A stretch of 64,000 nt of DNA from Anaerofustis stercorihominis (GTDB lineage: Bacteria; Bacillota; Clostridia; Eubacteriales; Anaerofustaceae), in assembly GCA_015058295.1 (NCBI GenBank), contig SVCP01000004.1, positions 4,040-68,039 on the forward strand, read 5' to 3'. Under the pieces are notes generated by a model that saw only the letters and a program-made list of their open reading frames with translations, ran no database searches and was not told the origin of the DNA. The stretch's first letter is position 1, and every line of letters starts with the position of its first letter. Shown here in pieces: positions 24,517-45,757 of this stretch. The position numbers and the translations under genes are program-made.

Positions 24517-25560
24517 TTATGACACACTTCCGAGAAGCGGCTGGTCATACTCAAACAACACCACATTTATGTCATTTATGCGGTAATTGCTATTTGAGAT
24601 AACATACCGGATGATTACATCAAATTTATCGCTGTAGGAAAGTGCATAACCTGCTTTTTTAAGAAGCTCATTGGTTTCTTCAAGTGAAAGCTCAAGCGCA
24701 ACGGCAAATGCCACTGCGGTGGTCTTTTTCGGCTTATAGTATTTGTCGTTTACTATTTTCGAGAACAGTTTTCTGTCTATGTTGGCTTTTTTGTAACAGT
24801 CGGAGTTTCTGATACCCTTTTCGTCAATTTTCCTTATGAGCATTTCCGAAAAGCTTTCATCAAGGTTACTGAGTTGTTCTTCAAGGGACGGAGCTGTCTG
24901 TGCGGCAACCTGCGGGGAGCACATTTTTGCAGAACAGTCATCTTCTGCGAAATCATCATCAATATGTGACGCAGAAAGCACACGAGAGCTTCTTTTTGAA
25001 TTTCTTCTTCTGTCATATATTATGGCATAGTTGTCATCGATATAGGATTTTATCTGCGGAAAAAGTCTGCTCCCCAGGCGGAATCCTTCCTTGTCGTATA
25101 CGACTATGTATACGGTAATGTCCGTATCATAATTTCTGTCCATGAGGTACTGACCGACAGTATTCAGGGCAATATTCAGCGCCTCGTCTTTCGGATATCC
25201 CTGTGCCCCCGATGCTATGAGCGGAAAAGCGATGCTTTCGCAATTATATTCATCTGCAAGCTTCAGAGCCTTTTTGTAGCATGAACCGAGAAGTGTTTTT
25301 TCTCCGTAATTTCCGCCTTTCCATTCCGGCCCGACAGTATGTATGACATATTTTGCCGGAAGGGCATATGCATTTGTTATCTTTGCTTCTCCCACAGAGC
25401 ATCCTCCGAGAGAAAGGCAGTCATTTATGATCTGTTCTCCGGCTTTTTGCAGTATTCTGCCATTTAAACCGTCGCTCATGGTAAGTGTTCTGTTGGAAGG
25501 GTTGACGATTGCATCGACTTCCATTTTTGTGATGTCGTTTCTGATGATCTGAACAGGCAT
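24517..25560 (-). CDS. macro-domain protein (ADP-ribose binding/hydrolase fold) with a C-terminal helical/HTH-like domain
   Basis: N-terminal DIT...VDAIVN.SN ... GGC..GEA.IT ... VIHTVGP pattern. Start at MPVQII after GGAGG. Confidence 0.8.
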   Translation of the reverse strand: MPVQIIRNDITKMEVDAIVNPSNRTLTMSDGLNGRILQKAGEQIINDCLSLGGCSVGEAKITNAYALPAKYVIHTVGPEWKGGNYGEKTLLGSCYKKALKLADEYNCESIAFPLIASGAQGYPKDEALNIALNTVGQYLMDRNYDTDITVYIVVYDKEGFRLGSRLFPQIKSYIDDNYAIIYDRRRNSKRSSRVLSASHIDDDFAEDDCSAKMCSPQVAAQTAPSLEEQLSNLDESFSEMLIRKIDEKGIRNSDCYKKANIDRKLFSKIVNDKYYKPKKTTAVAFAVALELSLEETNELLKKAGYALSYSDKFDVIIRYVISNSNYRINDINVVLFEYDQPLLGSVS

Positions 25561-25664
25561 ATATCTCCTCCGCAATGTTTATGTCTGTATTATATACTTA
25601 TTCCGAAAAAAACACAAATTTATCAGTCCTTAGTGCTATGTCTGTGAAGATTTTGTCCGTACAA

Positions 25665-30836: not shown

Positions 30837-30870
30837 AACACCACAGACTGATCTGTCTGTGGTGTTTTTA
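30837..30870 (+). terminator. rho-independent terminator after the PBP gene (left boundary of the island)
   Basis: AACACCACAGAC / GTCTGTGGTGTT stem followed by TTTA. Confidence 0.8.
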
Positions 30871-30994
30871 TGTGATTGATTATATGTGGATGGAATATTA
30901 TTGACACCCTGAGGTATAAAATATGCCTGTTTATATAATTATTTTCCGAAATATCATGCAGATTCCGTTATACATATCATACAGGAGGTCAGAT

Positions 30995-31693
30995 ATGTAT
31001 AACAGTATTTATAATTTACCGTCATTTTTTTACAGCGCTGCAACCGGTATCGGCAATATATCCGAAAGGATCTGTAACAGCATATACTACAGCCTTAATA
31101 ATATCTCCCGCAGAGTTTCACGAAGCAGAAGAAATTCTTACGGAGGCAGAAGAAATTCCGATACACATATATTCCGCGGACTTGTTACTTCATTAAATCC
31201 TGTGGGAAGATACAGGACTACGCTTCAGAAAATATCAGATGCGTTGTTCCTGGGTATTCCGTATACGATTGGATTCAGTGCATACAGTCTGCGATTCAGA
31301 GTCGAAAAGATCGATGATTACGGCAGGTATACAGATGATATAAGGGATTTTGTGTTTTTCGGTGATCTGGAAGGCGTCATTCAGCTCGGGAGCGAAGTTT
31401 CCGTCAGAAGTGACTCTTCCGGCAGAGTGAAAAGTGTACTTGTTCACGATACAGGAAGGGAATACCGACCTGCATCTGCATTGTCGGTAGTTCTTATCAG
31501 GGTTGCTGCCATATTGGCAGTCGCATTGTTCATAATGTTTATAGTGTCTGTTGTCAACGGGACGCTATTTGCTTTTCTCGGTGCATTTTTCGGTGGGATT
31601 TTTTCTGCGTTCGGTATGATGCTCATGTACCTTATGCCGTATGCGGTGTGTTTTATGATTGTTTATTATATTTTCAGGGGGATATTCAGCTGA
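30995..31693 (+). CDS. hypothetical membrane protein (soluble N-terminal domain plus 2-3 C-terminal TM helices)
   Basis: ATG at 30995 after AGGAGG; an alternative start at 30923 follows GAGGT. Hydrophobic C-terminal third. Confidence 0.55.
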   Translation: MYNSIYNLPSFFYSAATGIGNISERICNSIYYSLNNISRRVSRSRRNSYGGRRNSDTHIFRGLVTSLNPVGRYRTTLQKISDALFLGIPYTIGFSAYSLRFRVEKIDDYGRYTDDIRDFVFFGDLEGVIQLGSEVSVRSDSSGRVKSVLVHDTGREYRPASALSVVLIRVAAILAVALFIMFIVSVVNGTLFAFLGAFFGGIFSAFGMMLMYLMPYAVCFMIVYYIFRGIFS

Positions 31694-31695
31694 GT

Positions 31696-34185
31696 ATGGA
31701 AATGAGTTTCAGACAACGACAGAGTAAGTATATAAACGATGCGCCATCGCTGATAAATGCCATTACAGGAAAAATGCAGAGCGCAGGGACAATCGACAGA
31801 TATTTTTCTCCCGCAGAATTCCCCTGTATCACAAAAATACATGGGTACCGTTCGGCAGAAGACAAAGATATTGATAAAGACAGATGTATTTCGTTTATTA
31901 AATCCGTTGCGGAATATGACAGAGATTTTTGTGTAATGTATATTTCCGAAAACGGACTGATAAACATATATATTGCTACAGAATTCCCGATTCACACGAT
32001 ACTCAGCCTGCTTCCGGGAATAAGGGCCGAAACAACCGGATTCCCCGTAAGATCTTTTTCTGCAATGAAAAGCTGCGGGGTCGTCAGGGGTAGGAGCAAT
32101 CTGTATTTTGATGCGGATAAACTGCTCAGGCATATGTCGGGAAAAAACTGCGCCGTTGTCGTGACATTTACACCTGTGAGCAAAGATGATCTGTCGGCCG
32201 AAAGAGAAGTACTTCATAATCTCAGCACAGTATATTCCTCCCTGGAAACAAATGAAATAAAGAATTACAAAGGGGATATAAGGCTGACAAATCCGACTGT
32301 GTCGCTTCTGAATGAAATATTATCCTGTGCCACAGACAGAGTAAATGAAGCTATGGGTACGGGAATGTATACCTGCAGTGCATTCTGCTTTGGTGAGAAT
32401 AAGGATGAGATGAATTCTCTTGTTAATGCGTATATTTCTTGTGCCGACAAAAAAAGTATTATCAACGATAATCTCCCGGATATATTCTGTGGAAAGAAAT
32501 TAATTTATACTGATATTTATCCCATAAAAAATGAGACCATCTGTGTTCCCGGCAATGATTCGTATATGATGTACGGTCTGAAGGTATTCGGCAGGGAGTT
32601 GTCTTCAGAGATTACACTGAACGAAATAAGTTCAGCTGTATCTCTTCCGGTGTACTCACATGCAGGGTTTTCTGTGGAAAAGATAAGCAAAACACCTGAT
32701 GAATATCACATTTTTGATGTGAATATACCACGGGGAAAGGAAGGAGATACTATTTCTCCCGGAATTATCGCAGAAGGGAATCAAGCTTTCTGTATAGATA
32801 TAAACAGGCTGACTTCACACATACTCAACTGCGGCACAACAGGCTCCGGAAAGAGTAATACGGGGAGGGTGATCATCGGTGAGCTTGTGAAAAACAACAT
32901 CCCCGTCCTTGTGCTCGAAAGCAAAAAGCGTGATTACTGGAAATTTGCGGTATCAAGGGGAGGAAGAGTATTTTCCGCAACAAATGATGCAGAGGCACTT
33001 TGCTTTAATCCTCTCATACCGCAACCGGGAACAGTGATCGCAAATCATATTGAAAAGCTGATAGTTGCGTTTTCCTCCCAGAGTACCAATTTTGAGTCCC
33101 CCTTGCCGGAAGTTCTCAAAGGGCTTCTGGAAATAACATACAACAAAGCGGGATTCAGTGTGGACGAGACCGCAACGAGACGCGAAAAAAGAATATATCC
33201 CACTCCGAAGGATATGTTTTCACTTATGGGAGAGTATATTGACTCCCTGCCGTATTCGGGGAAAGTCAAAGACGATGTTTACGGAGCATTAAAGATGAGG
33301 CTTTCAGAGCTTTCTTACGGGATGGGCGGAAGGATATTCAACACAGACAAGGCGATTAATTTTGACGAGTGGTTTTCTTCTCCGGTTACGGTGATAGAAC
33401 TCGACAGTCTGGAAGAAAAGACCTGCAGTTTTACCGTATCAATACTTTGCTGTATGCTTGACGAATATCTCAGATCTCGTCCGGAGAGCCATATTCTCAA
33501 GAGAATGATTGTTCTCGAAGAAGCACACAGATTTTTCGCAAACACAGAAAGAATGAATGCATCGACAGATACAAAAGGAATGATAAGTGCGTACTTTTCT
33601 GAAATGCTCTCTACCATCAGAAGCTATGGAACAGGAATGATGATTATTGATCAGTGTCCGTCACGGCTTGATGGCAGTGCAGTTGCGAATACCGCAGTGA
33701 AGATAGTTCATGCACTGTCCGACAAAAAAGATGCGGAGGCAGTGGAATATCATCTTTCGCTCAGTGAAGAACAGAAAAGATATCTGACAAACCTTCAGAC
33801 AGGCCATGCAGTGATAAAACTTTCGGGGATTTCGCAGTGTTGTCTTGTGAAAATAAATCAAGCAGAATCTGAAAACGAAAAACCGCATCACGGCTGTATG
33901 TTCTGTGAAAAAGGCAACTGCGTATTCTCCGCAGCGACTGACATCTTTTCTTCCGGCAGATTTCGTGCTTTGTGTGATGCTATGTCAGATGAACTTCGTG
34001 ATGACGGAGATATTGAGTGTGTTATCAGTCTGATCATCAGGTGTGCATCGGAGTTTTACAATAATGAAATGGATTGTAAAAAAGAATTTCTCACCTGCTT
34101 TGGAGGAATGCTAATAAGCAAATCCCGATATGCGAATGCCGCATTGCTGCGTAGGACGATGAAGGAGTTTGTAAGGAGGTTATAA
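31696..34185 (+). CDS. HerA/FtsK-superfamily P-loop ATPase (DUF87-like) with large unassigned N- and C-terminal regions
   Basis: Walker A GTTGSGKS (nt ~32833-32856) and Walker B MIVLEEAHRF (nt ~33505). Cys/His cluster HHGCMFCEKGNC near the C-terminus. Start uncertain (31696, 31702 or 31648). Confidence 0.7.
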   Translation: MEMSFRQRQSKYINDAPSLINAITGKMQSAGTIDRYFSPAEFPCITKIHGYRSAEDKDIDKDRCISFIKSVAEYDRDFCVMYISENGLINIYIATEFPIHTILSLLPGIRAETTGFPVRSFSAMKSCGVVRGRSNLYFDADKLLRHMSGKNCAVVVTFTPVSKDDLSAEREVLHNLSTVYSSLETNEIKNYKGDIRLTNPTVSLLNEILSCATDRVNEAMGTGMYTCSAFCFGENKDEMNSLVNAYISCADKKSIINDNLPDIFCGKKLIYTDIYPIKNETICVPGNDSYMMYGLKVFGRELSSEITLNEISSAVSLPVYSHAGFSVEKISKTPDEYHIFDVNIPRGKEGDTISPGIIAEGNQAFCIDINRLTSHILNCGTTGSGKSNTGRVIIGELVKNNIPVLVLESKKRDYWKFAVSRGGRVFSATNDAEALCFNPLIPQPGTVIANHIEKLIVAFSSQSTNFESPLPEVLKGLLEITYNKAGFSVDETATRREKRIYPTPKDMFSLMGEYIDSLPYSGKVKDDVYGALKMRLSELSYGMGGRIFNTDKAINFDEWFSSPVTVIELDSLEEKTCSFTVSILCCMLDEYLRSRPESHILKRMIVLEEAHRFFANTERMNASTDTKGMISAYFSEMLSTIRSYGTGMMIIDQCPSRLDGSAVANTAVKIVHALSDKKDAEAVEYHLSLSEEQKRYLTNLQTGHAVIKLSGISQCCLVKINQAESENEKPHHGCMFCEKGNCVFSAATDIFSSGRFRALCDAMSDELRDDGDIECVISLIIRCASEFYNNEMDCKKEFLTCFGGMLISKSRYANAALLRRTMKEFVRRL

Positions 34186-34187
34186 AT

Positions 34188-35045
34188 ATGCTTGATTTTT
34201 ACGATTATGATGATATTTACGAAACCCCGGTGTATAAAGATATACTGTCTGCAATTACAGATACGCCCACGGAATACGAAGAACTTTCTGATAATACACA
34301 AAAAAGCATTGTCGAAATGCTTGACACAGGAGAATATATCCATACATCATTCCGAATCAATGATATTTCTGATATAACAATGCAGGACTATGAACTTGCT
34401 CTGAAAACAAAGTCTCTGGCATACGAAATGCTGCAGAAGAGTGAACACGGAGCGGAAGGTCTCGGAAAGTATTCAGAATATATTTCCGATGTGGCGAATT
34501 ACAGAAGAGACTCGGGAGAAAACTTTCAGGGAGATCTTTTCCACGAGATCATCGCGGCAAAAGACGGGTTCAACGGTATTCCCCATGTTCTCGATGAAGA
34601 TGAATTTGAAGAAGCTTCCCGGGGAAAGACCCTCTTGTACAGAGGGCTTTCCGCTTCTCCTGACGGAAAGAGCGCATTTGAGATAAGCGAGGATTTCAAG
34701 TATTCGGACAGGTTCTATCATGGTCTCGGGCTTTACGGAAACGGAATATATATGAGTCCGAGAGAAGATATAGCTAGATGCTATTCTGACGGAAGCTATG
34801 GCAGCGGAATAACTGCATTTCTCGACAGCGATGCAAGGATAATAACTTATGAAGATCTCCTTGAACGAAAAAAAAGGATTGATCTTGACGACGGAACAGA
34901 TGCGGGCAGGCTCGCAAATGAGATAATCAGCGACAACGGAAGATTTGCGGAACTTTGCGGATACGATGCCGTGAGCCTTGACGGATATGCAGGGCAGGAA
35001 CATATACTTGTGCTTAACAGAAGCAAACTGACAGTGAAGAAATAA
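34188..35045 (+). CDS. ADP-ribosyltransferase-like protein (R-S-E clade-like fold; glutamate motif atypical)
   Basis: LLYRG (Arg codon 34641-34643), GIYMS, and GYAGQEHILVLNRS (34983-35024). The last resembles the GYAGE.E.LLN segment of C2/iota/C3-type ARTs as I recall it. GGAGG RBS. Confidence 0.5.
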   Translation: MLDFYDYDDIYETPVYKDILSAITDTPTEYEELSDNTQKSIVEMLDTGEYIHTSFRINDISDITMQDYELALKTKSLAYEMLQKSEHGAEGLGKYSEYISDVANYRRDSGENFQGDLFHEIIAAKDGFNGIPHVLDEDEFEEASRGKTLLYRGLSASPDGKSAFEISEDFKYSDRFYHGLGLYGNGIYMSPREDIARCYSDGSYGSGITAFLDSDARIITYEDLLERKKRIDLDDGTDAGRLANEIISDNGRFAELCGYDAVSLDGYAGQEHILVLNRSKLTVKK

Positions 35046-35076
35046 AAAACAGGTCATCATTGACCTGTTTTTTTTT
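35044..35076. terminator. bidirectional rho-independent terminator shared by the two convergent island operons
   Basis: AACAGGTCA / TGACCTGTT stem with an A-run before it and T7 after it. It fills the whole gap between the two stop codons. Confidence 0.85.
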
Positions 35077-35077
35077 A

Positions 35078-35878
35078 TTATATGATTCCTGACAGGAATA
35101 ATGCTGCTGCGCAGGACAGAATCAGCCTGCCGCAATATCTGTAAAACAGCGGAAATGTTTCCGAGCGGTTAAGCAGAAGCGGAACGGAAATCATCGTAAT
35201 AACAATGCCTGCGGAAACCGTAATGATATTTTCTGTTGTCAGCAACAGAACCAGAAATAATGGAAGAAACCATATTGACAGGTGGGAACCATATCTTTCA
35301 GAAAAAGAATATATGATTCTGTTTACGCATACTGACAACACACACGCCCCGAAGAATCCTGCCCATCCGCTGAGTGTTGATACCGTAGACGGAAATATTA
35401 CCCCGATGATGGTGAATAACAGCTGTATTGCAAGATATATATATGACAGTGTTATTCCGTTTTGTTGCCGGCTGAGAAGTTCATCGCTTTCCCTGCGGTC
35501 TGCGGAAGGTTGTCTTCTTTGTGTGTTTCTCCGTCGTGTTGTCTGTCGTGTTGTAGTGTCTGTTGAATTTCCGGAACTCTCATTCTGTGTATTTTGCGGC
35601 CTCTGAAGATATTCACTCCGGACTCTCGGATAATACACCTGTGCCGCATATTGGTTTGCGTGAATGCTCTGTGCTGTGATTGCGGATCTTGAATTATGGA
35701 TTCTTACGGGGAAAACATATCCGCAGTTGTGACACTGATCTTCTCCGCGAAGCAGATCCTCCTTGCATACAGGGCAGTGAGACCTCTTAGAGTTTCTTGG
35801 TTTTCGTCTGAATCCGCAATGAGGACAAAGACTGCGTGTCCGTTCGAATAATGTATTGCATGCGGGACAATGTATCAT
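35078..35878 (-). CDS. double zinc-ribbon protein with a disordered basic linker and a C-terminal multi-TM domain
   Basis: N-terminus CPAC..CPHC..CPVC..CHNCGYVFPV.IH aligns with the two upstream paralogs. About four hydrophobic segments. Confidence 0.65.
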   Translation of the reverse strand: MIHCPACNTLFERTRSLCPHCGFRRKPRNSKRSHCPVCKEDLLRGEDQCHNCGYVFPVRIHNSRSAITAQSIHANQYAAQVYYPRVRSEYLQRPQNTQNESSGNSTDTTTRQTTRRRNTQRRQPSADRRESDELLSRQQNGITLSYIYLAIQLLFTIIGVIFPSTVSTLSGWAGFFGACVLSVCVNRIIYSFSERYGSHLSIWFLPLFLVLLLTTENIITVSAGIVITMISVPLLLNRSETFPLFYRYCGRLILSCAAALFLSGII

Positions 35879-35881
35879 ACT

Positions 35882-36970
35882 CTATGCTCCGAATATAGCC
35901 GCAACGGATGGCGCCTGACACAGCATAAAATATGTAAAAGTGATGCATGCAGCAGCAATGGTCGGTGTATATATAGCCAGAAAGAATCCTTCCGACCACA
36001 GATGATGATATTCACTTCGGAAAATGAACAACTCCGTAAATCCGATAATGCATGTCAGGATCAACAGCACTGCCGCTGTGATATACTGCACTCCCGGACG
36101 GAATGTCCCTGCGAGAAGCCCGAGCCATAAAATTCCGAGAATGATATTCGGAAGTACACCGTCGGCAATGTGGCTTCTGTAGCATCTTGAGATATTATGC
36201 ACAGACATAAGAAAAACCAGTACACTTATCCCTACACACATATATGCAGGCCATCTCAGTTCAGGGAATTCGATTGCCCAGGTCTGATTGACGCAAAGGA
36301 GTGAGCAGAAAACTATATTCTCCATTACGTGCGCATATCCGTCTGTAACATGAAGACGGGTTTGTGACAGGAGAGCCTTGCTTTCTGCACTCCGCGTTCT
36401 TTGCATCAGTGAGGTCATTTCATTTTGTAATGCAACAACTTCTTCAGAAGAACCGGCATCACTTCGCAGTTCGTCCAATATGGCAGACATCGAGTTGATT
36501 TCATCCATAAGCATATCTGCCGTGCGGGTTCTTTCTTCCAGCTGAGATTTTACATATTCAAGTTCCGCACTGTTTTCATTTGCTTTTGATCTGTGAATAA
36601 GAAGCTCGTAGTTCAGTTCATCTATATTTTTCTGCAGATTTTTAAGTTGCTCATCTTTAAGGTCAAGTTCTTTTTTATATTTTCCGTTGACGTTTTCAAA
36701 GTATTTTATTTTCTGTGACGGGAGGATGGTCTTTTCCGAGTACTCTTCGGCAAGTTCTCTTACGTATTGGTCTGTATATTCTGTGCTGTGGACCACCGCC
36801 GGCAGAGTAAATCCGCATTCCGGACAGCTTTCGTCTGTGTGGGAGAGCTTTTCAAAACAGGACGGACAGTATCTTCCTTTTTTGCTGTCAGGAGCGATTC
36901 GGAAAGAACATTCCGGGCATATTTTTATTCCGTCAGGTATTTCACTGCCGCATATTTTACATTTTATCAT
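35882..36970 (-). CDS. double zinc-ribbon / coiled-coil / multi-TM protein
   Basis: CKIC..CPEC..CPSC..CPECGFTLPAVVH, then a ~130-aa heptad-rich region, then ~4 TM segments. AAAGGAG RBS. Confidence 0.65.
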   Translation of the reverse strand: MIKCKICGSEIPDGIKICPECSFRIAPDSKKGRYCPSCFEKLSHTDESCPECGFTLPAVVHSTEYTDQYVRELAEEYSEKTILPSQKIKYFENVNGKYKKELDLKDEQLKNLQKNIDELNYELLIHRSKANENSAELEYVKSQLEERTRTADMLMDEINSMSAILDELRSDAGSSEEVVALQNEMTSLMQRTRSAESKALLSQTRLHVTDGYAHVMENIVFCSLLCVNQTWAIEFPELRWPAYMCVGISVLVFLMSVHNISRCYRSHIADGVLPNIILGILWLGLLAGTFRPGVQYITAAVLLILTCIIGFTELFIFRSEYHHLWSEGFFLAIYTPTIAAACITFTYFMLCQAPSVAAIFGA

Positions 36971-36994
36971 GCAGAAAACTCCTTTCAGGGTAAA

Positions 36995-37495
36995 TTAAAG
37001 TTCAATACCCGAGTTGTAAAGTCTGTCTTTGAGTACATCCAGCTCCTGCTGTACTTCCCTGAGTTTTTCTCTGGTCAGTTCATATCTTTGTTTGTAGTAT
37101 TTTTCTGTATCGGACAGTTTTATACTCTCTGCATTTGCGGGAAGCTCCCCGTATTTTTCCTTGTGGTTTATGTTTGCGATGTCTTTTTCAGCGAGCATCT
37201 TTTCATATTGAGCTATCTTTTCTTTAAGATACTTTTCCTTTTTGCGGGGAATATAGTATGTGCCTGCATATGTTACGGCCTCCGTTGTCACACGGGCGAG
37301 AACTTCGGGTGTGGGATGAATAATTACCGGGAAAGTATATCCGCATTCATCGCAGATCTCCTCACCTTTTTTTACGTTGTGATTGCAGGAGGGGCAGTAT
37401 GGTTTATTTTTATCTTCCGGTAAAAATCGGAATGAGCAAGAACATACCTCTGTTTTTACAGGAACTTCTTTTTCGCAGACAGGGCATTTTTTCAT
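36995..37495 (-). CDS. double zinc-ribbon / coiled-coil protein (soluble)
   Basis: CPVC..CSC..CPSC..CDECGYTFPVIIH, then a K/E-rich helical region. 4-nt overlap with the upstream radical SAM gene. Confidence 0.6.
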   Translation of the reverse strand: MKKCPVCEKEVPVKTEVCSCSFRFLPEDKNKPYCPSCNHNVKKGEEICDECGYTFPVIIHPTPEVLARVTTEAVTYAGTYYIPRKKEKYLKEKIAQYEKMLAEKDIANINHKEKYGELPANAESIKLSDTEKYYKQRYELTREKLREVQQELDVLKDRLYNSGIEL

Positions 37496-38115
37496 TTTAT
37501 TTCACCTTCGCTTTGTCTTATATAGCTGTTTATATATTCTCTCTGTGCTCTTGTGGGGACTCCCGTTATGGAGACTTTATCAAGGTTTACGTCCGCTTCT
37601 ATGATCCTGCCTTCGGCATTGTAAGTTTCATCGTATTTATCCTTATAACGGTCTGTAAGGAGTATTACTCTCTGATTTGAGGATCCTACGTATCTTCTCC
37701 TGTCGTCATTAAGTTCATCGACATATTCGCCATCAATAAGGATATCAATTACATCAAGGGCTCTGAGTGTGTATTCACTGCCGCAGTCACGTAGCTGTTC
37801 GATGGTGTTGCCTGTGTATACGGTGACTCCGAGATCAAGTTCATGTGCAGCAGAAGCTATGACAAACAAAGCTTCGTCCTGTAAAAACGGTTCACCGCCA
37901 CTAATGACGATTCCCTCGATTCCGAGAGACAAATTTGCGGAGATCATTTTTATTATCTCATCCGTATCAGTAATATACCCTCCGTCAAGGCTTCTTGAAT
38001 CAACGCTCATGCAGTTCGGGCAACGTCTTTTACAGCCCTGAAACCATATGGCCGTCTTTTTGCCCATACCGAACGCTTCGGTTACGGGTTTGTATGCATA
38101 TAATCGTACATTCAT
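37492..38115 (-). CDS. radical SAM activase, NrdG-like (anaerobic RNR / glycyl-radical-enzyme activating family)
   Basis: CxxxCxxC cluster GCKRRCPNC (nt ~38007-38035), SGGEP, and a DGEY...VGSSNQR segment typical of NrdG as I recall it. Confidence 0.7.
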   Translation of the reverse strand: MNVRLYAYKPVTEAFGMGKKTAIWFQGCKRRCPNCMSVDSRSLDGGYITDTDEIIKMISANLSLGIEGIVISGGEPFLQDEALFVIASAAHELDLGVTVYTGNTIEQLRDCGSEYTLRALDVIDILIDGEYVDELNDDRRRYVGSSNQRVILLTDRYKDKYDETYNAEGRIIEADVNLDKVSITGVPTRAQREYINSYIRQSEGEIK

Positions 38116-38125
38116 ATTTTTTACC

Positions 38126-39037
38126 TTATTGTTCTTCGTCGTCCTTACAAAGCAGAATATCCCTGAACTTTAACTTTATGCTGTCCAGAAGTTCTTCTGC
38201 CTGAAGAATTTCTCCATTTAAGAGATTGTTTACTTTTATGAGCTTTCCGGAGAAATTATCTGACGACGGTTTCATGTCTTCCTCGGCATCTCTGATATTG
38301 CTTAGCTTGTCGAGCCACTGAGTATACGTATTTCTCATTCTTTTTAGCTCATTGTCAAGTTCAAGACTTTTCTGCTTCAGTTCATTCAGAGCTTCTCTGT
38401 CAGAAGAAAGATCAGTTGAAATAATACTTTCATAGTGAGCTTTTTCCTTCAAAAGACGTTCGTATTCGCTGAGGTGCTCCGCATTATCAGATTGCAGTTT
38501 CTTTATAAGAGCATCAAGCTTTTCATTATCTGATATGATTTTAATTTTTTCTTTCTGCAGCTTATCGCGTTGTGCTTTTTTTACCTGCAGGATATCCGGA
38601 GAATATGAACTCAGTTCATCCGTGAGAGAATTTATCTCTTCATCAAGCTTTTTCACAACACTCATCTGTTGTTCGTGTTCCTGCTGTTTTTCTGTGAGCT
38701 TATCTTTTTCGGCACGGAGTTTTGTGCTCTTCTCTTTCAGTTCATCAATGGCAGAACGGACAGCATTATATTCTTCTTTTGTTTTTTCTATTTCGTCGGC
38801 AGACTCCTGTTTAAGAAGCTCTATCTGTTCTCCCGATGCTTTCGGATACGAAAGAAGAAGGTCTGAAAACAGTCCCGAAACTTCCATGAGCTGAGTGTAA
38901 AAAAGCTCAACATCATCAAGATTGTTTCCATTGATGTTTTCTTCATTTGCGTCATAAAAGCTCAGTACGGCGCTGAGAAAATCAACGGGAGATATTTTTT
39001 CTTTTGAAGCGAATTTATTAAAGCAGCTTAAATCCAT
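38126..39037 (-). CDS. coiled-coil protein (303 aa)
   Basis: Almost entirely E/K/L/Q-rich heptad-like sequence. AGAGG RBS. Confidence 0.55.
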   Translation of the reverse strand: MDLSCFNKFASKEKISPVDFLSAVLSFYDANEENINGNNLDDVELFYTQLMEVSGLFSDLLLSYPKASGEQIELLKQESADEIEKTKEEYNAVRSAIDELKEKSTKLRAEKDKLTEKQQEHEQQMSVVKKLDEEINSLTDELSSYSPDILQVKKAQRDKLQKEKIKIISDNEKLDALIKKLQSDNAEHLSEYERLLKEKAHYESIISTDLSSDREALNELKQKSLELDNELKRMRNTYTQWLDKLSNIRDAEEDMKPSSDNFSGKLIKVNNLLNGEILQAEELLDSIKLKFRDILLCKDDEEQ

Positions 39038-39049
39038 AACAGACCTCTT

Positions 39050-40870
39050 TTATTTTTTCGTATTCTGCTCAAGTGCAAGGGGGGAGCCGTCAACAGCAAA
39101 TATCTCTCTTCCGCTGCGGAAGGTATTTGTTTTTTCGGTTCCGCTCATATCCTTGAGGTAAAGTGTGAGAGCATTATCTTTTCCTATTGAAGCTCCGAAA
39201 TAGTATGTCACACTGCTTTTGCCGGGCGTGAGGAAGAAACTGCGGTATGATGGGTGAGGATATGCGCAATACGGAGTTATTCCTTCGCCGTAATCGAGGA
39301 CTATCCTGTAATCCGCATTGCCGTCAAAGATAAACGGGATCTCGTTTCCGCCGGAATTCTTTATATAATACGGAATGTCCTTTTGTATTACCTGACGGTT
39401 GGTAAAGCAGTAAAAATATTTCGTCTCTCCGTTGAGGATAGCTTCAAGTCCTACACCGAAAGGTGCAAAATCACGGTATGTTATGTATCCGTTGCCGACA
39501 AGGGCTGCTCCCAGACTTACGGCGTGAGATCTCCAGTTTGCGGAAACTTCGCTGTATTCACCTGCATAAACATGAGATATATTGTTTATGAGGGTGTTGT
39601 CGTTTGCGGTGCGGTGATAGTTATATTCAAGGCGTGAGTTTTCCGAATCAGCCACATCAAGACCGAAGATTTTCAGGATATACCACCTTGTGAGATAGAA
39701 GTTTCCGAAACCTCCGATAACTGCTATCATCGGTTCAATTCCGCTTTGTTCAATAAATGATTTCGCCTCGTTAAGATATTTTTCGTAGCCGGGTTTAATG
39801 ACTTCTCCGAAGCTGCTAAAGAGCTGGGAAACGGTGATCTTTACTTTTCTGCCATCGTAATATATGAAGTTGTCATTTTTGCTGTTAAAGCAGAAATTTT
39901 CTTCTTCTTTCGCAAGGTCAGTGGTTTTTCTGAACTTCCAGCTTTTGTGATTAAACTTTACGCAAAGCTTTGAGAGCTTGTCGCTGATGGATTTTGCATT
40001 TGTTGTAAGCTTTGACTCGAGAGAGTTGAACGCCTCCCAGTAATCCCTGTTTTTCGGAATCTCCGAAATACCAAGCTGTGATGAGATACTCTTCGTCAGA
40101 ACATCATTTATGTATGCAAATCCCGCCTGTCCGAGTTTGTCTTCGGAATGAAGTCCGAGTCCCCATTTTTTTATGGGCTCAAACATACTTATGCCGTCAT
40201 TTGAATACACGTTTGCCAGAAGCACATCAAATGTTCCACCTCCTATATCTGCAAGAAGAATGGCTCCTTCGTAATTTCTGCCTTCGTTCGCTTTGTAGTT
40301 GTCAATGAGCATAGCCATTGCCGCCGCAGGCTCGTTGATTATGGATACATCGGTGTGCTGATCAAATACTTTGCTGTATTCTCCGTCAAGTTCGGTTATG
40401 GCGTTTTTCAGAACGGAAGTCATGATATCTGTAAGGACGACATCTTCCGGACGTGTATTGTTGTTCTGTCCCCAGATGAGAGGCATGCATATCTTTACGG
40501 AATCAACGTGGAGCCCTTCTGTGTTGCAACTGTCAGTAAACAGCTTCATAACATATTTTAAGAATTCTTTTGTAATGTATTTCGGAGTAAACTTGTCGGT
40601 ATAGCTGTTTCTTTCGAGGACGGAAGCATCTGTTTCGTTGATAAGCAGCTTGAAGCCTCTGTATACCACAACATTTCCTCCTCCGTTAAGTGCATCAAAA
40701 CCGAACTGCAGGTCATCATCTATTCTGCTTACTACAGAAGGTATCGCATAAGATGCACCGTTGAATGCAGCTCTGCGGACTATGTTATTGGAATCAATGC
40801 CAATAACGGAAGAGTTGTAGCTGATTTTCGTGTATGTCGTTCCGTTGTCAATTGAAATGTTGAGTCCCAT
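39050..40870 (-). CDS. divergent Hsp70/DnaK-family ATPase with a non-canonical C-terminal domain
   Basis: IDNGTTYT (phosphate 1), IINEPAAA and DIGGGTFDV (nt ~40225-40255). The C-terminal ~180 aa do not look like the DnaK substrate-binding domain. Confidence 0.75.
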   Translation of the reverse strand: MGLNISIDNGTTYTKISYNSSVIGIDSNNIVRRAAFNGASYAIPSVVSRIDDDLQFGFDALNGGGNVVVYRGFKLLINETDASVLERNSYTDKFTPKYITKEFLKYVMKLFTDSCNTEGLHVDSVKICMPLIWGQNNNTRPEDVVLTDIMTSVLKNAITELDGEYSKVFDQHTDVSIINEPAAAMAMLIDNYKANEGRNYEGAILLADIGGGTFDVLLANVYSNDGISMFEPIKKWGLGLHSEDKLGQAGFAYINDVLTKSISSQLGISEIPKNRDYWEAFNSLESKLTTNAKSISDKLSKLCVKFNHKSWKFRKTTDLAKEEENFCFNSKNDNFIYYDGRKVKITVSQLFSSFGEVIKPGYEKYLNEAKSFIEQSGIEPMIAVIGGFGNFYLTRWYILKIFGLDVADSENSRLEYNYHRTANDNTLINNISHVYAGEYSEVSANWRSHAVSLGAALVGNGYITYRDFAPFGVGLEAILNGETKYFYCFTNRQVIQKDIPYYIKNSGGNEIPFIFDGNADYRIVLDYGEGITPYCAYPHPSYRSFFLTPGKSSVTYYFGASIGKDNALTLYLKDMSGTEKTNTFRSGREIFAVDGSPLALEQNTKK

Positions 40871-40894
40871 GTTATTCTCCGAATATTTCTTTGA

Positions 40895-42268
40895 TTAATT
40901 TTTCTGAGAAGCAAGTCTTCTCATAGATTCACCGGCAGATGCGGAACACTGTGAAAGTCCGCCCTGCGCCGCTGAAACCAGGATATCATCCTCGGATTCT
41001 GCAATCCCGGAGGCTGACAATATGTTTGTTATGTCTCCTTCAACGGAGGCTCTTTCTTCCGGCTGTGAAAAGATCTCTCTGTACACAGTAAGTTCATCTC
41101 CCGGATTTACGGAAAGGATGACACTGTCTCCGAAATCATTTGAAATTCTCATTGTGACAGGGCCTACTGCATTGCTGTCAAGTCTCTCATCAATGGTCCA
41201 GCCACGGCTTTCCGACTGAGAGATGAGGTTGTCTGCGGCGCTGTGTGCGGCGATCTGTCTTAATCTGTTTTCGTTTGCTATTGATACAAGAGAGCTTTCA
41301 TCATCCGAGAGTACTTCGTCAAGGTCGTATTCCATTGTGTTTATCATCTGCTCAAGTGCGCGGTTGCCGAGAGATTCAGGTGTTTTTATGCGGTTTCTGA
41401 TGGCAATATAGTTCTCTCTTACCATCTCATAAAAGTTTTCTCCGTCATCCGTGAAAGCGTCGCACCACTCACCTACAGGGCAGGGGTATTTCGTGATGTT
41501 GTTATCTTCATCGGCAAGCAGAACTTCGTTTTCGTCACATTCTGCGAGCCTTCCATCCATTCTTACGGAAAGCTCATTTGCTCTTGCAATGAGAGACGGA
41601 CGTTTTTCGAAGTTTTCTGAGAGAATGTGATAGTGAATGAGCATATCCCTGTTGAACTGAGCATCTAAAATTGCTGTTACACTCTGAGTGTTGTCTCTCT
41701 GAAGTTCTGCACGGGCGCTTTCGATGACAAATGCAAATCTGTCGAGTTCTTCCTTGTCTTCTCCTCCGAAGTCAAGCTCTCTCATCTGCGAAAGAAGATT
41801 CTCTGCGTTGGAAAGAAGACTTGTTGCCGTTTCTTTTCTTCTGTTTTCAAGATCAAATATAGCATCGACTCTTTCGTTGGTTAAAGTTACCTGTCCGTAA
41901 AGGTCATCAATTCTGAAATTTACCTGATCGAGCTGACGGTTGATCATATCCACCCTGTGTCCGAGATCGTTTATTCTGTCTGTGTTTGCGTTGTTGAGCG
42001 CATCCTGCTGAGAGATCACATCTCTCAGTCTGTCGAGTTCTCTTTGTGTTGAACGGCTCAGTTCGTCATATCTTCTCTGGGCTTCAGCTCTTGCCTGCTC
42101 CGACTGAGCTCTTTCTTCTCTGATAATGCGCTCGACAGCTTCGTTAACCTGTGCATTGCCGTTTCTTACGGATGCAAGCTCTCTTTCGAGGTTTGCTGCT
42201 CTGTTGTAACCTGCAAGAAGACGGTTATATTCACTGTTTGATAATACTCGTGTTCGTTCGATACTCAT
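40895..42268 (-). CDS. coiled-coil protein with a globular C-terminal half (457 aa)
   Basis: The N-terminal ~200 aa are R/E/Q/L-rich heptads. Start chosen at ATG 42268, 8 nt after GGAG. Confidence 0.55.
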   Translation of the reverse strand: MSIERTRVLSNSEYNRLLAGYNRAANLERELASVRNGNAQVNEAVERIIREERAQSEQARAEAQRRYDELSRSTQRELDRLRDVISQQDALNNANTDRINDLGHRVDMINRQLDQVNFRIDDLYGQVTLTNERVDAIFDLENRRKETATSLLSNAENLLSQMRELDFGGEDKEELDRFAFVIESARAELQRDNTQSVTAILDAQFNRDMLIHYHILSENFEKRPSLIARANELSVRMDGRLAECDENEVLLADEDNNITKYPCPVGEWCDAFTDDGENFYEMVRENYIAIRNRIKTPESLGNRALEQMINTMEYDLDEVLSDDESSLVSIANENRLRQIAAHSAADNLISQSESRGWTIDERLDSNAVGPVTMRISNDFGDSVILSVNPGDELTVYREIFSQPEERASVEGDITNILSASGIAESEDDILVSAAQGGLSQCSASAGESMRRLASQKN

Positions 42269-42334
42269 AATAAGCACTCCTTTTATGTTTATTCGGTTAA
42301 TATAACCGGGCTTATTTTTATATATCGGAAAACA

Positions 42335-45300
42335 TCAGATATTTTCTTTGTTTTTGATATTTTTCATCAGTCTGTAAAGATTATCTATGTGTGCAAAACG
42401 ATTTGTTTCGCTGGGAGCATGTACTCCCGAGCTGGAATGGTTTATAGATCCGCACAGATATCCGATTACAAGGCCGTCTGTATTTATTATAGGTGCACCG
42501 GAATCTCCCTGATGAATCGCCTGTCCTTCAAAAAGGATATAACCGCTGTTGGTTCCCACTACTTTCGAAGGTGTATGCAGCTGCAGCTCTCTTATTCCGA
42601 GAGGATATCCTGCGGAGAATACCTTATCCTGAAGAGAGCACAGCTCCCCTTCAGGTGCAAGATTCAGTGAAGGATACACAGACCCGTTTTCAAAGCTGTC
42701 CTTTATGGCGAGGATCGCACAGTCGCCGTCTTCGGATGATGCGATTACGGAAAGGTGGATATTTTTCTCGAAGTTCATGGCGCCCTGTTTTATTTTCACT
42801 GTTGCGGTAAACGAATCCGCACCGTTTACGCAGTGGTGACATGTGGCAACATATTTTCCTCCGATAATGTATCCTGTGGAATGTGAATGTACCGAACCGC
42901 CTTTTTTTGCTTCGATCCTTACGATGGCATTTTCCATCTTTGTCAGGAAGCCTTCAGAAATATTATCGTTTTCGTCAAGTACATTTTCTTCGCCTGACGA
43001 GAGCGATTCAATAAATCCGTCCTCAGCAAATTCACGGGAATATATTTCCTTTTCATCCACTGCGGAACCTTCCTTTATGAATTTATAATCCTCAAGTTCT
43101 TTTATTGCATCAACGGAAAGAGTGTTGTCTTCCACAAACGGCCACAGGTCTTCTGCCAGTGCGCAAGCATACCTTGCGTTACCGAAGGCCGCACCTGTAT
43201 TTTGTTTGTATGTGATAATGCGCATAAGTGCATCTCTTGCTTCGTCGGTAACGATAACTTCCTGTGAGATAAGCTCACTCAGTTTGTGAGCGAATATTGC
43301 ATACAAAGCATCAACATCGTAATCCCCGATGCGTATCTCCGTAAAGCGGCTTTCAAGACCTTCCTGAGCAGATTTTACAGCCGCCCAGTCCTTTTCGTAT
43401 CCTGTGAAAATAACGCATATGTTGTTTTTTTCTCCGTCGGTTATGTAGGAGCACATATTGTTCACGGCATTTCTGCAGGCGCTATCAGAACGGACCTGCA
43501 GATCAAGTCCCGCTGTTTCATCAATAAGAAGTACAGACCCGTTTGCTTCCGAAAATGCTTCTTCCATTTTTTCGGGGGTGTTGATATCTGAAAATCTCTT
43601 CTGAATGAATGCTCCCGTTGAGAGTATACGGAATTCCCTGAACACGCGCCCCATAAGTCTTGCGAACTCTGTCTTTCCCGTTCCCGGATTGCCGAGAAGG
43701 GAATAATTTTTTACTTTAACTTTGCGCCTTATCTCGAGAATGCCTTTCTGCGTAAGTCTGCCGTTTTTTGTATTTCCGGGAAGAGATGCCACTTTTGTGA
43801 TGCGTCTGTGCATATTTCGGATTACATTTTTCACATCTTCCATACCCACAAATTCACTCATGATTTCCTCAAGTTCATTTTCGGTTATAAGGTGATACTC
43901 TTTATCGTATTTTTCAAGAGGAGTGCCTTTTGATGAAAAAGTATTCGCTCTGGTACAGGGAACAAGAAATTCTTCTTCAAGTGTGCGGACATTTGCCCAC
44001 TTCCGTTTTGTGTCTCCCAGGCGGTCAATGTACCAGTTTGTTAGAAAATCCCTCAGATCGTCATCGGCATAGCCTTCTTTGTATCGGATATTGTTGTTTT
44101 TGAGATATGATCTTGCGATCTCGAAAAGCTCGAGCTCCGAATATGTATCAAGCCTGATGAAATTCTGACGGAAACGGGAAGAAAGACCTTCATCGTTTTC
44201 CCAGATTTTTTCCATCCTGTCTTCATATCCCGCGAGTACAACAGCCATTCTGCCTTTGTAATTCGTGAGTGCCGGAATGAGTACTTCCATTATCTCCTGT
44301 TTGAAATGTTCTTCGTTGCCGTTGTTGTCGTGAACGCGGAGGTTGTGAGCTTCATCAATGAACAATACTCCCCCGACAGCATCTTTGATTCTGTTTTTCA
44401 TTTCAACGGCAGTCTGTCCCACAAATCCCTGCTTCAGCTGCCCTACGGAAGTTTCCACAAGATGGCCGCTGGGCAGGATTCCGAGATTTCGGAGTGCTTC
44501 CCCGAGAAGTCTTGCAACTGTGGTCTTTCCGCTTCCCGGAGGCCCCACGAGGACGAAGTTCAGGAATGCAGGTGCGTTTTTACTGTCTGCAGGAAAGAGC
44601 CTCTGCACAGCAAGATAATCAGGACAGATATGAGAAGTTACCTTTGATGGCTTTGTGCCACCATAAGCGGTTTTTATATCATTCAGCTCTCTTAGCAGCG
44701 TTTTGAATCCGTTTCCCTGCATATTTCTTATCTTTTCCAGCGGGTCTTCAGCGATATTCCTTACGCAGTTTTGCAGTTCGTCAAAATAAGATACTTTTTT
44801 GTTTTTGTAGCATACGGAGTTTTTCAGACCGCTGAGTGTTGCTGTTTTGTCAAAATTAATGCCTGATTTTTCCAGTGAAGAAACTATCTGGGGTTTTTGT
44901 GATTTTGTATCATCGGACTGGGAAGGGGTATATCTGTTTATCGCTACAAGCTGTGAGGATATATCCTCCAGAAGATTATAGTCAAGGGATATTTCCCCTT
45001 CGATGTCGGATTTGATGAGCATATTTTTTGCTTCATCAGTGCTGAATTTTTCAACTTCGATGAATCTTCCGTTGATGCTCTCAATATGTGCTTTGTTGTC
45101 ATAATTTTTCTTGAAGTCGCCTTCAGCGCAGGCTTCCCAGAATGACAGTTCTTTGAAAAGCTCATGAACAGCTTTCCATTCTTCCCGGATCTGCCCGTTT
45201 ACGGTTGTCATATTGTCCACATAGTCAATATCCGGGAATATAAATATAATATTTTTCCTTATTCTGTTGTTTGCCCTGAACTTCGAGAGAGTTGTGCAGA

Positions 45301-45757
45301 GCTTTATTATCTCTTCAGTCTTGTCAAGACTGTTTTTTATTATGTCAAAAAGATCTTCTCCGCTTAAGATGACTGCGGTGGAAAAATCTCTCTGTTCTTC
45401 TCCGAACATAAATCTGTCGATATATCTGAGCATCTTGATATACGAAGACAACTTATCCTTGTCCGTGAGAATTATCTTCGCACCGTTTACGGGAATGAAG
45501 CCTCTTTTCTGTGTTCCTTCGAGCTTGAACAGGTTCCCGAAATTCGTTGCGGAAATCTCATCGGACGCAAACGGACCGATGAAAGAGTCGTCTTTTTTGA
45601 AAGAGATTATGTAGTCATATCCCGCATATTTAAGATAGTTGTGAAGATACCCGAATATATCCACTTCCTCAAGGGAGTTCAGATAAAAGCGTTCGTTATA
45701 GATTTCTTTTGAAATAACGTATCCGAAGATCTCGTTTATTCCTTCAAAATATGCCAT
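42335..45757 (-). CDS. 1140-aa fusion: unassigned N-domain + two CbbX/SpoVK-type AAA+ modules + C-terminal trypsin-like serine protease
   Basis: Walker A GPPGSGKTT with Walker B VLFIDEAH (nt ~44521-44550). Second Walker A GNPGTGKTE with LLIDE (nt ~43670-43700). Protease His (TCHHC), Asp (DCAIL) and Ser (GDSGAPI, nt ~42494-42515). AAGGAG RBS. Confidence 0.75.
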   Translation of the reverse strand: MAYFEGINEIFGYVISKEIYNERFYLNSLEEVDIFGYLHNYLKYAGYDYIISFKKDDSFIGPFASDEISATNFGNLFKLEGTQKRGFIPVNGAKIILTDKDKLSSYIKMLRYIDRFMFGEEQRDFSTAVILSGEDLFDIIKNSLDKTEEIIKLCTTLSKFRANNRIRKNIIFIFPDIDYVDNMTTVNGQIREEWKAVHELFKELSFWEACAEGDFKKNYDNKAHIESINGRFIEVEKFSTDEAKNMLIKSDIEGEISLDYNLLEDISSQLVAINRYTPSQSDDTKSQKPQIVSSLEKSGINFDKTATLSGLKNSVCYKNKKVSYFDELQNCVRNIAEDPLEKIRNMQGNGFKTLLRELNDIKTAYGGTKPSKVTSHICPDYLAVQRLFPADSKNAPAFLNFVLVGPPGSGKTTVARLLGEALRNLGILPSGHLVETSVGQLKQGFVGQTAVEMKNRIKDAVGGVLFIDEAHNLRVHDNNGNEEHFKQEIMEVLIPALTNYKGRMAVVLAGYEDRMEKIWENDEGLSSRFRQNFIRLDTYSELELFEIARSYLKNNNIRYKEGYADDDLRDFLTNWYIDRLGDTKRKWANVRTLEEEFLVPCTRANTFSSKGTPLEKYDKEYHLITENELEEIMSEFVGMEDVKNVIRNMHRRITKVASLPGNTKNGRLTQKGILEIRRKVKVKNYSLLGNPGTGKTEFARLMGRVFREFRILSTGAFIQKRFSDINTPEKMEEAFSEANGSVLLIDETAGLDLQVRSDSACRNAVNNMCSYITDGEKNNICVIFTGYEKDWAAVKSAQEGLESRFTEIRIGDYDVDALYAIFAHKLSELISQEVIVTDEARDALMRIITYKQNTGAAFGNARYACALAEDLWPFVEDNTLSVDAIKELEDYKFIKEGSAVDEKEIYSREFAEDGFIESLSSGEENVLDENDNISEGFLTKMENAIVRIEAKKGGSVHSHSTGYIIGGKYVATCHHCVNGADSFTATVKIKQGAMNFEKNIHLSVIASSEDGDCAILAIKDSFENGSVYPSLNLAPEGELCSLQDKVFSAGYPLGIRELQLHTPSKVVGTNSGYILFEGQAIHQGDSGAPIINTDGLVIGYLCGSINHSSSGVHAPSETNRFAHIDNLYRLMKNIKNKENI

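Follow-up and report, generated by a model that had tools for sequence, protein, structure and literature searches.

The operon and its boundaries

The subject of this analysis is a compact gene cluster on the plus strand of a 64-kb stretch of DNA (hereafter, the window) from a metagenome-assembled genome (MAG) of Anaerofustis stercorihominis, which encodes a predicted membrane protein, an ATPase of the HerA type and a protein resembling ADP-ribosyltransferases (ARTs). A sequence-only reading of this DNA had described the three genes as an operon with gaps of 2 nt, and the coordinates, the letters at the gene junctions and two terminator-like hairpins all agree with that description. ORF1 (30995-31693; 232 amino acids) is followed by the ATPase gene, ORF2 (31696-34185; 829 amino acids), and then by ORF3 (34188-35045; 285 amino acids); the junctions read TGA-GT-ATG and TAA-AT-ATG, respectively, both spacers being exactly 2 nt in length. 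Strong ribosome-binding sites are present in front of ORF1 (AGGAGG) and ORF3 (AAGGAGG), and a weaker one (GGGGGA) precedes the ATPase gene. ORF1 possesses a second in-frame ATG at position 30923; since no ribosome-binding site accompanies it, we regard position 30995 as the better start.

On the 5' side, the operon region is bounded by a terminator-like hairpin on the plus strand (30837-30866) that closes the upstream PBP1A gene, and at the 3' side a bidirectional intrinsic-terminator-like hairpin (35044-35073) serves both strands, as it is common to ORF3 and to a convergent operon on the minus strand. The hairpins on either side of ORF1-ATPase-ORF3 hence delimit a transcription unit, and the three genes form a genuine operon. 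The GC content of the window is in no way unusual.

ORF1 is a candidate membrane anchor or partner of the ATPase. Its basic N-terminal cytoplasmic region (net charge of +7 across the first 150 residues) precedes three predicted C-terminal transmembrane (TM) helices (residues 158-220), in keeping with its previous description as a membrane protein. The protein has no match in Pfam, NCBIfam, PADLOC or PHROGs.

An ATPase of the HerA clade

All the sequence motifs previously ascribed to the ATPase are present where they had been claimed. The Walker A motif GTTGSGKS (32833-32856, plus strand) spans residues 380-387, of which the family alignment shows G380, T382, G383, G385 and K386 to be invariant, and the Walker B motif VLEEAH (33511-33528, plus strand) spans residues 606-611, with E608, E609, A610 and H611 being invariant. 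The same holds for R642 and Q653 downstream of Walker B. Judged from these invariant motif residues, the protein appears to be a catalytically intact, albeit divergent, HerA-clade member. Its C-terminal tail contains the Cys/His cluster HHGCMFCEKGNC (33886-33921, plus strand; residues 731-742), which may bind a metal; the pattern H-x-CMFC-x3-C is kept in the sole close relative of the ATPase, which is encoded at the metagenomic locus L093 described below.

The ATPase consists of a lineage-specific region (residues 1-185), a family-conserved region (residues 186-360), the core (approximately residues 360-720) and the C-terminal tail (residues 719-829); its relatives align only from about residues 186-214 onward. 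Pfam DUF87, the central domain of HerA, matches with 49.9 bits (gathering threshold 23.2) and begins at residue 360, while FtsK_SpoIIIE, P-loop_TraG and HerA_C are all sub-threshold in Pfam. A family profile of the N-terminal region matches nothing in the PDB, so that this part of the protein is as unassigned as it had been said to be.

The best PDB sequence match of the ATPase is Sulfolobus HerA. For a comparison of the clades represented in the PDB, we built a profile from 12 members of the ATPase family. It matched HerA chains with E-values from 1e-21 to 1e-12, VirB4 with 2e-4, the coupling protein TrwB with 1e-3, EccC with 3e-3 and FtsK with values above 0.1; among the best matches were the chains 8xau, 8j4u, 8wiv and 9c1m of SIR2-HerA and DUF4297-HerA complexes. 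By these profile comparisons, the ATPase is of the HerA clade and not of the VirB4, VirD4, FtsK or EssC type, and its designation as HerA-type is thus upheld. A close kinship to the SIR2-HerA and DUF4297-HerA scaffolds, with which the sequence-only reading had connected it, is not borne out: the two NCBIfam HerA_antiphage models give 32 and 22 bits (cut-offs 800 and 850), the PADLOC HerA profiles reach at most 42 bits, with 10 of the 11 matching only the C-terminal half, and PADLOC DndH scores a negligible 12 bits. The top NCBIfam match is CedD, with 94 bits against a cut-off of 600. By its NCBIfam and PADLOC scores, the ATPase does not qualify as an ortholog in any of the curated families.

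Three other assignments were considered and rejected. Against a conjugative ATPase of the VirB4/VirD4 type stand the VirB4, TraC, TraD and TraG profiles, which score far under their cut-offs, and the lack of conjugation genes. An EssC-like ATPase of a type VII secretion system (T7SS) was discarded given the single ATPase domain, the lack of any FHA or TM domain in the protein, and the E-value for EccC. The best PADLOC match was mad8 of the MADS system, with 55 bits, and the other mad genes are absent.

A large family with a variable downstream gene

A genome scan recovered at least 564 relatives of the ATPase in species-representative genomes, typically 900-1200 amino acids in length. Carriers are found among the Actinomycetota (Streptomyces included), Bacillota, Cyanobacteria/Melainabacteria, Chloroflexota, Pseudomonadota and archaea. 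In viral contigs, 13 relatives were detected in 2.9 million, and 44 plasmids carry one, among them plasmids of E. coli, Lactococcus and Bacillus. A word-indexed protein search with the ATPase returned 21 proteins, the nearest with 32% identity over the C-terminal half; neither of two metagenome scans, for which the ATPase and the ORF3 alignment served as the respective queries, yielded relatives. In terms of its sequence relationships, the ATPase branches deeply within a family of HerA-like ATPases that is large, uncharacterised and mostly cellular.

One member of this family, a Veillonella protein of 1152 amino acids (P0020; loci L011/L012), is common in human-associated metagenomes, being indexed in 86 blocks of the collection. 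It probably represents the NCBIfam subfamily 'ser_rich_anae_1', a model that gives 77 bits with the ATPase of the window. In Veillonella, the ATPase gene is located within a string of unannotated genes that ends in a NERD/UvrD-like helicase gene.

We called ORFs in the fetched family loci and scanned the genes directly 3' of the ATPase with Pfam. Among the proteins encoded by the first gene after the ATPase (72 proteins), we found LHH (three times), WHH, Ntox15 and Colicin-DNase (twice each), Endonuclea_NS_2 and Zeta_toxin; among those of the second gene (66 proteins), SUKH/SMI1_KNR4 occurred five times and Tdi1_C twice. Precomputed annotation of metagenomic loci likewise reveals ATPase, LHH and SUKH genes in succession, with overlapping stop and start codons. 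By their domain content, the genes immediately following the ATPase, in apparent translational coupling with its 3' end, constitute a hypervariable toxin slot that is usually filled by DNases; in many cases an immunity gene of the SUKH or Tdi1 type comes next. Because toxin domains vary at this position across the family loci, the position occupied by ORF3 corresponds to this slot. The suggestion that the third gene might be swapped in homologs was therefore sound as far as effector exchange itself is concerned; the partners found are nucleases of the polymorphic-toxin type with SUKH or Tdi1 proteins, and not SIR2.

The recognised slot toxins all act in the cytoplasm, and none is aimed at the cell wall. 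Slot proteins are short (160-350 amino acids) and possess neither a signal peptide nor a known trafficking domain; LXG, WXG, PAAR, RHS and TPS domains were found neither in ORF3 nor in the Pfam family counts of the slot proteins. What the slot proteins have in common is an acidic N-terminus: over the first 80 residues, tightly coupled slot proteins have a median net charge of -7 and the other genes of the loci, a control set that stems from crude ORF calling, one of +1 (Mann-Whitney p = 5e-11). Their leaders share this acidity and no sequence similarity.

Other genes near the ATPase are less constant, and BLAST-level clustering of the family loci revealed no universal partner apart from the ATPase itself. 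Genes located upstream of the ATPase encode TM proteins in 42 of 73 cases, and proteins with an N-terminal zinc ribbon and TM helices, as well as FHA proteins, recur beside the ATPase. WYL regulators, a KAP NTPase, a NERD helicase and a dynamin pair of the Eleos type are found as neighbors as well. On plasmids of E. coli ETEC TW10590 (L108) and Bacillus PGP15 (L110), the annotation by PGAP reads dynamin, dynamin, hypothetical protein, ATPase, HNH/EndoVII nuclease, SMI1/KNR4. The L. cremoris B26 plasmid pB26B (L107) carries the same dynamin-ATPase-nuclease string, its final gene being annotated only as hypothetical. Such a string is sometimes headed by a WYL gene, with one or two hypothetical genes between the dynamins and the ATPase. 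The dynamin pair also lies upstream of the ATPase in the metagenomic loci L001 and L003-L006, and the dynamin-ATPase-toxin-immunity string is found both in Bacillota and in E. coli.

Some slot proteins fall outside the Pfam-recognised toxins. Those at L001 (10506-11120), L003 (7238-7852) and L011 (11464-12420), as well as others at L050, L054, L084 and L092, have Gly/Ala/Ser-rich hydrophobic, glycine-zipper-like N-termini and the common motif 'DLGD.A.QA...GI.PENY'; Pfam recognises none of them, and they are possible membrane-acting effectors. In a Clostridia MAG (L042, 9563-10615), the protein encoded after the ATPase opens with long (H/Y)EGT repeats (THEGTYEGT...).

The composition of the slot brings up the possibility that the ATPase is part of a toxin export or delivery machine, in which a membrane-docked HerA-like ATPase would thread leader-bearing toxins (an ART in the case of the window) out of the cell for interbacterial antagonism, with the immunity genes shielding kin. 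The toxin and immunity families of the slot (LHH, WHH, Ntox15 with Tdi1, Colicin-DNase, SUKH) are indeed polymorphic-toxin families of the type V, type VI and type VII secretion systems (T5SS, T6SS, T7SS). Moreover, the acidic leaders are alike in composition while the C-terminal domains behind them vary, partners of the membrane, zinc-ribbon and FHA types recur, and other members of the FtsK-HerA superfamily (VirB4, VirD4, EssC) move proteins. However, the slot toxins possess no signal peptide or known trafficking domain, their recognised representatives are cytoplasm-acting without exception, and the same small architecture is used by monoderms, diderms and archaea with no outer-membrane component. 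The WYL, KAP and dynamin neighbors resemble those of defence islands, and ORF3 is followed by a terminator rather than by an immunity gene. Furthermore, we know of no protein exporter in the HerA clade proper. On balance, we consider export to be rather unlikely. Its broader version, in which the whole family would be the motor of a previously unrecognised toxin export pathway common to monoderms, diderms and archaea, with the variant in the window delivering an ART, strikes us as unlikely.

ORF3: an acidic leader and an ART-like domain

ORF3 is organized in two parts. Residues 1-110 (34188-34517, plus strand) form an acidic leader with a net charge of -15 (-14 within the first 80 residues), most of which is modeled with low confidence except for a helix at residues 62-84. 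Residues 111-285 (34518-35045, plus strand) form a domain similar to ART-PolyVal. The whole of ORF3 has only one close homolog, with 66% identity, and tblastn of ORF3 against phage and plasmid collections yielded no match.

Relatives of the C-terminal domain are far more numerous. An exhaustive HMMER search with residues ~110-285 retrieved 908 of them, among which are proteins with Phage_Mu_F, Phage_min_cap2 or portal domains that carry the domain at their C-terminus, and giant proteins carry it in up to 6-7 tandem copies; for example, P0024 (1423 amino acids), P0025 (1363 amino acids) and P0026 (728 amino acids) contain three to seven. This context of phage fusions and tandem arrays is the behavior described for the ART domains of polyvalent proteins (PMC5512222). 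When one of the MuF-fusion relatives was used in tblastn, its phage matches ran through the capsid part only. Stand-alone, mostly actinobacterial homologs of the domain (P0048, P0174, P0110, P0177, P0179) open with the pattern H-[LM]PG-x-H-[DN]-Q-x-x-HG.

Eight of 29 relatives of the ORF3 domain match Pfam ART-PolyVal (PF18760), with a best E-value of 2.4e-7. A profile of the ORF3 family yielded 41 matches in the PDB, all of them sub-threshold, of which 38 are PARPs or a diphtheria-toxin-like protein. The AlphaFold2 model, computed with 22 homologs, has pLDDT values of mostly ~85-98 for the C-terminal domain (means of 71-98 for blocks of 10 residues). Foldseek comparison of this model with BFVD returned ten phage proteins at E-values of 1e-3 or less, a MuF fusion among them, and an 'ART-PolyVal-like domain-containing protein' at 9e-3.

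The invariant residues of the domain are R152 (in LYRG; strand 1, residues 150-152), D260 (in GYDA; before strand 5, residues 261-263) and N277-R278, and Y188 (in GNGxY; strand 2, residues 186-190) is nearly invariant. Three of these are candidate catalytic residues: R152 (34641-34643), Y188 (34749-34751) and D260 (34965-34967, all plus strand). The published active site of ART-PolyVal comprises a His in strand 1, a Tyr in strand 2 and an Asp in strand 5 (PMC5512222). Since the published triad of this clade is H-Y-D, the ORF3 family presents itself as an R-Y-D variant. E271, which we had considered as a catalytic Glu, was dismissed as it is not conserved in the family, and D260 fits the published Asp of strand 5. 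From its relatives and its model, ORF3 is predicted to carry a divergent domain of the ART superfamily, of the ART-PolyVal (Tox-ART-HYD2) kind, with a corresponding predicted activity. The earlier proposal that the third protein is ART-like is consequently in line with its relatives, with the PF18760 matches among them, and with PARP-type structural matches, which are weak.

A second ATPase-ART locus

The sole other homolog of ORF3 is encoded on a metagenomic contig of 1.7 kb (L093). Here, the ORF3 homolog begins 2 nt after the C-terminus of an ATPase that is 51% identical to the tail of the window ATPase, the CMFC cluster included. A convergent gene follows the ORF3 homolog, and its product is 39% identical to the zinc-ribbon TM protein that is encoded by positions 35078-35878 of the window. 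Thus, a second organism has the ATPase and ORF3 genes in the same order and with the same 2-nt gap, at 51-66% identity. Among 91 other loci, we found neither an ORF3-like ART domain nor a sequence resembling the leader of ORF3. The pairing of this ATPase with an ART is real but rare. As ORF1 has no relatives, linkage of all three genes is not demonstrable beyond the source genome; the conserved linkage that the sequence-only reading had envisioned accordingly holds for the ATPase-ORF3 pair, on one other contig, and not for ORF1.

This second locus also bears on a reading in which ORF3 is not an effector of the ATPase at all, that is, in which the ATPase is a membrane-associated DNA translocase such as CedB/CedD or Thermus TdtA, or in which the operon is an addiction module of a mobile element with a phage-derived ART that came to lie next to the ATPase by chance. 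CedD is the best NCBIfam match of the ATPase, the ORF3 domain is otherwise a part of phage MuF or polyvalent proteins, and several relatives of the ATPase reside on plasmids. Nevertheless, the CedD score falls far short of its cut-off, and Ced, pilus and relaxase genes are lacking. Chance adjacency is difficult to reconcile with the maintenance of the 2-nt coupling and gene order in the organism represented by L093, and the family-wide toxin slot speaks for an effector role. We therefore hold any such non-effector reading to be very improbable.

Genomic surroundings

The operon is flanked by housekeeping genes. Upstream are genes for DnaB, RapZ, a CofD-like protein, RNase PH/Ham1, a Macro-domain protein and PBP1A, whose identity is derived from its Transgly and Transpeptidase domains; downstream are genes for a pseudouridine synthase and an aminotransferase. 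No relaxase, type IV secretion system (T4SS) or integrase genes are present among the genes flanking the operon in the window, no tRNA gene was found in the 64 kb, no Ced or pilus genes were detected at the locus, and the flanks of the operon contain no secretion-system genes. Because its flanks are of the housekeeping type, we place the ATPase outside conjugative elements; the sequence-only reading had named location within an obvious element of this kind among the findings that would speak against its proposal.

The Macro-domain protein (352 amino acids; 24517-25575, minus strand) is encoded 5.4 kb upstream of ORF1, and its N-terminal Macro domain is recognized with an E-value of 3e-35. Macro domains take off ADP-ribose; the protein could counteract an ART, or it could be the product of an unrelated housekeeping gene.

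Converging on ORF3 is a tightly packed operon of eight genes on the minus strand (35078-45757). It encodes a fusion of an AAA+ domain with a trypsin-like protease (42335-45757; 1140 amino acids), unknown proteins of 460 and 606 amino acids, a coiled-coil protein of 303 amino acids and a radical-SAM/Fer4_12 protein (37492-38115), whose gene overlaps the next one by 4 nt. In addition, there are three double-zinc-ribbon proteins. The one encoded by the last gene of the operon (35078-35878; Pfam DZR) has four TM helices and may be associated with the ATPase-ART system; the connection of its two paralogs, one with a coiled coil and three TM helices (35882-36970) and the other soluble with a coiled coil (36995-37495), to the three-gene operon is uncertain. 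None of the genes on the minus strand matched a known defence system.

Together, the two operons make up an island of ~15 kb between housekeeping genes, which raises the question of whether the three genes work together with the convergent eight as parts of one system (30.9-45.8 kb). In favor of this, one bidirectional terminator serves both operons and housekeeping genes enclose them jointly, the last zinc-ribbon gene keeps its convergent place beside the ORF3 homolog of L093, and family ATPases repeatedly have zinc-ribbon TM proteins beside them. Yet, the L093 contig, at 1.7 kb, displays the zinc-ribbon gene only, and the synteny of two related organisms could reflect plain inheritance. The other genes of the minus strand were not found near other family ATPases, where, moreover, zinc-ribbon partners are encoded on the strand of the ATPase and not convergently. 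A joint function of the entire island thus appears distinctly improbable to us.

Comparison with known systems

SIR2-HerA (Nezha) and DUF4297-HerA resemble the operon in that a gene for a HerA-clade ATPase adjoins that of a toxic effector, which is directed at NAD in the case of SIR2-HerA. In contrast to these systems, the ATPase has an N-terminus that is ~250-500 residues longer and is no more than a distant relative; its effector is not a SIR2 protein or a Cap4-type nuclease but an ART-like protein behind an acidic leader, there is a membrane protein in addition, and relatives of the locus carry immunity genes. With the ART-PolyVal/Tox-ART-HYD2 domains (PMC5512222; Iyer et al., 2017), the ORF3 family shares phage fusions, tandem arrays and the conserved Tyr of strand 2 and Asp of strand 5. 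Unlike them, ORF3 has R-Y-D rather than H-Y-D residues, begins with a unique acidic leader and is encoded on the chromosome as a stand-alone protein, where its gene is coupled to that of a HerA-like ATPase and not to virion or conjugation genes.

A variable toxin domain in a constant genomic context is found at the level of the ATPase family (LHH, WHH, Ntox15, Colicin-DNase, EndoNS_2, Zeta, ART). Polymorphic toxin-immunity cassettes (Zhang et al., 2011, 2012) are comparable in this respect, as the slot of the relatives carries the toxin domains of these cassettes and, subsequently, their immunity proteins. Unlike such cassettes, the slot proteins are short and devoid of LXG, WXG, PAAR, RHS and TPS domains, the window has no immunity gene, and the partner that stays constant, a HerA-clade ATPase, does not figure among the trafficking systems listed by Zhang et al. 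(2011, 2012).

In the HerA/FtsK 'capture systems' (DndH and relatives), a translocase has been proposed to reel foreign DNA to an effector (PMC10853773; PMC12839542). These systems are similar in coupling a HerA/FtsK translocase to nucleases in anti-invader loci, whereas Dnd, BREX, ORC/Cdc6 and HTH partners are missing here, and capture systems, as described, include neither toxin-immunity pairs nor membrane partners. Eleos (LeoA/LeoBC dynamin-like) is a two-gene dynamin operon with an experimentally shown anti-phage function. In one subfamily of the ATPase, such a dynamin pair is located directly upstream in the same gene string; the window, by contrast, has no dynamin genes, and Eleos has been defined as two genes without an ATPase-nuclease-SUKH cassette. 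CedD imports DNA; this HerA-clade ATPase combines a TM domain with an N-terminal domain of unknown nature (PMC11868833). CedB/CedD, VirB4 of T4SS and EssC of T7SS belong to the same superfamily of P-loop ATPases and act at membranes with small TM partners; set against these, the ATPase of the window scores far under the cut-offs, consists of a single ATPase domain without TM or FHA parts, and is not accompanied by Ced, T4SS or T7SS partner genes. By analogy, the locus may work most like the HerA-effector defence pairs, and its slot seems to behave like a polymorphic-toxin cassette.

In the literature that we searched, we came across no account of a HerA/DUF87-toxin-immunity family or a dynamin-SUKH system, nor of such a family being joined to the dynamin pair of Eleos or of HerA being paired with an ART.

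Interpretation and significance

The locus is a rare member of the toxin-slot ATPase family. We tentatively favor the view that it constitutes a chromosomal conflict module whose role is intracellular and directed against invaders. We prefer an intracellular role because the recognised toxins of the slot all have their site of action in the cytoplasm, because the same compact architecture is present in monoderms, diderms and archaea, because WYL, KAP and NERD genes and an experimentally validated dynamin pair adjoin family ATPases, and because the solved HerA relatives are defence scaffolds.

A possible course of events can be outlined. The ATPase would assemble into a ring at the membrane, to which ORF1 would tether it, and this ring would hold or gate the ORF3 effector through the acidic leader; one may speculate that this partly disordered leader could fill the basic DNA channel of the HerA ring. 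A trigger, such as invading DNA or a perturbation of the membrane, would then lead to the ATP-driven release or activation of the effector. Once freed, the effector would ADP-ribosylate a cytoplasmic target, either a protein or a nucleic acid, or consume NAD+, and the invader or the infected cell would be stopped. The assembly of the ring, the contact between the leader and the ATPase, the trigger, the ART activity and the role of the locus in defence are all steps that we infer; the structure of the genes, the family memberships, the swapping of effectors and the conserved order of the ATPase and ORF3 are what the sequences themselves show.

Several observations weigh against this interpretation. 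The immunity genes present in many relatives would be no less fitting for polymorphic toxins that are secreted than for effectors of defence, and behind ORF3, where such a gene would be expected to lie, the terminator and convergent genes are found instead. No known defence system flanks the operon. The ATPase is merely 25-33% identical to any other family member, its pairing with an ART is known from two sequences only, and a protein like ORF1 is absent from the 91 other loci compared. With respect to ORF3, Pfam PF18760 scores 19.4 bits with the full-length protein and 20.1 bits with the domain alone, the gathering threshold being 31.2. The top 25 Foldseek matches in the PDB are all catalytic domains of the PARP family, but they are weak (E-values of at least 0.085, probability 0.82, TM-scores of 0.37-0.39), and strand 1 contains an invariant Arg where the defining His of the clade is expected.

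To our knowledge, HerA-type ATPases are just emerging as scaffolds of toxic effectors in phage defence, and the pairings with SIR2 and with Cap4-like nucleases are the only ones that have been studied. The operon of A. stercorihominis points to a far larger, uncharacterised branch of HerA proteins in which the ATPase is constant and the toxin slot hypervariable. If the module serves defence, an ART would be added to the effector classes of HerA systems, and polymorphic-toxin domains and their immunity proteins would become linked to intracellular immunity; if it serves export instead, it would represent a new route of toxin trafficking.

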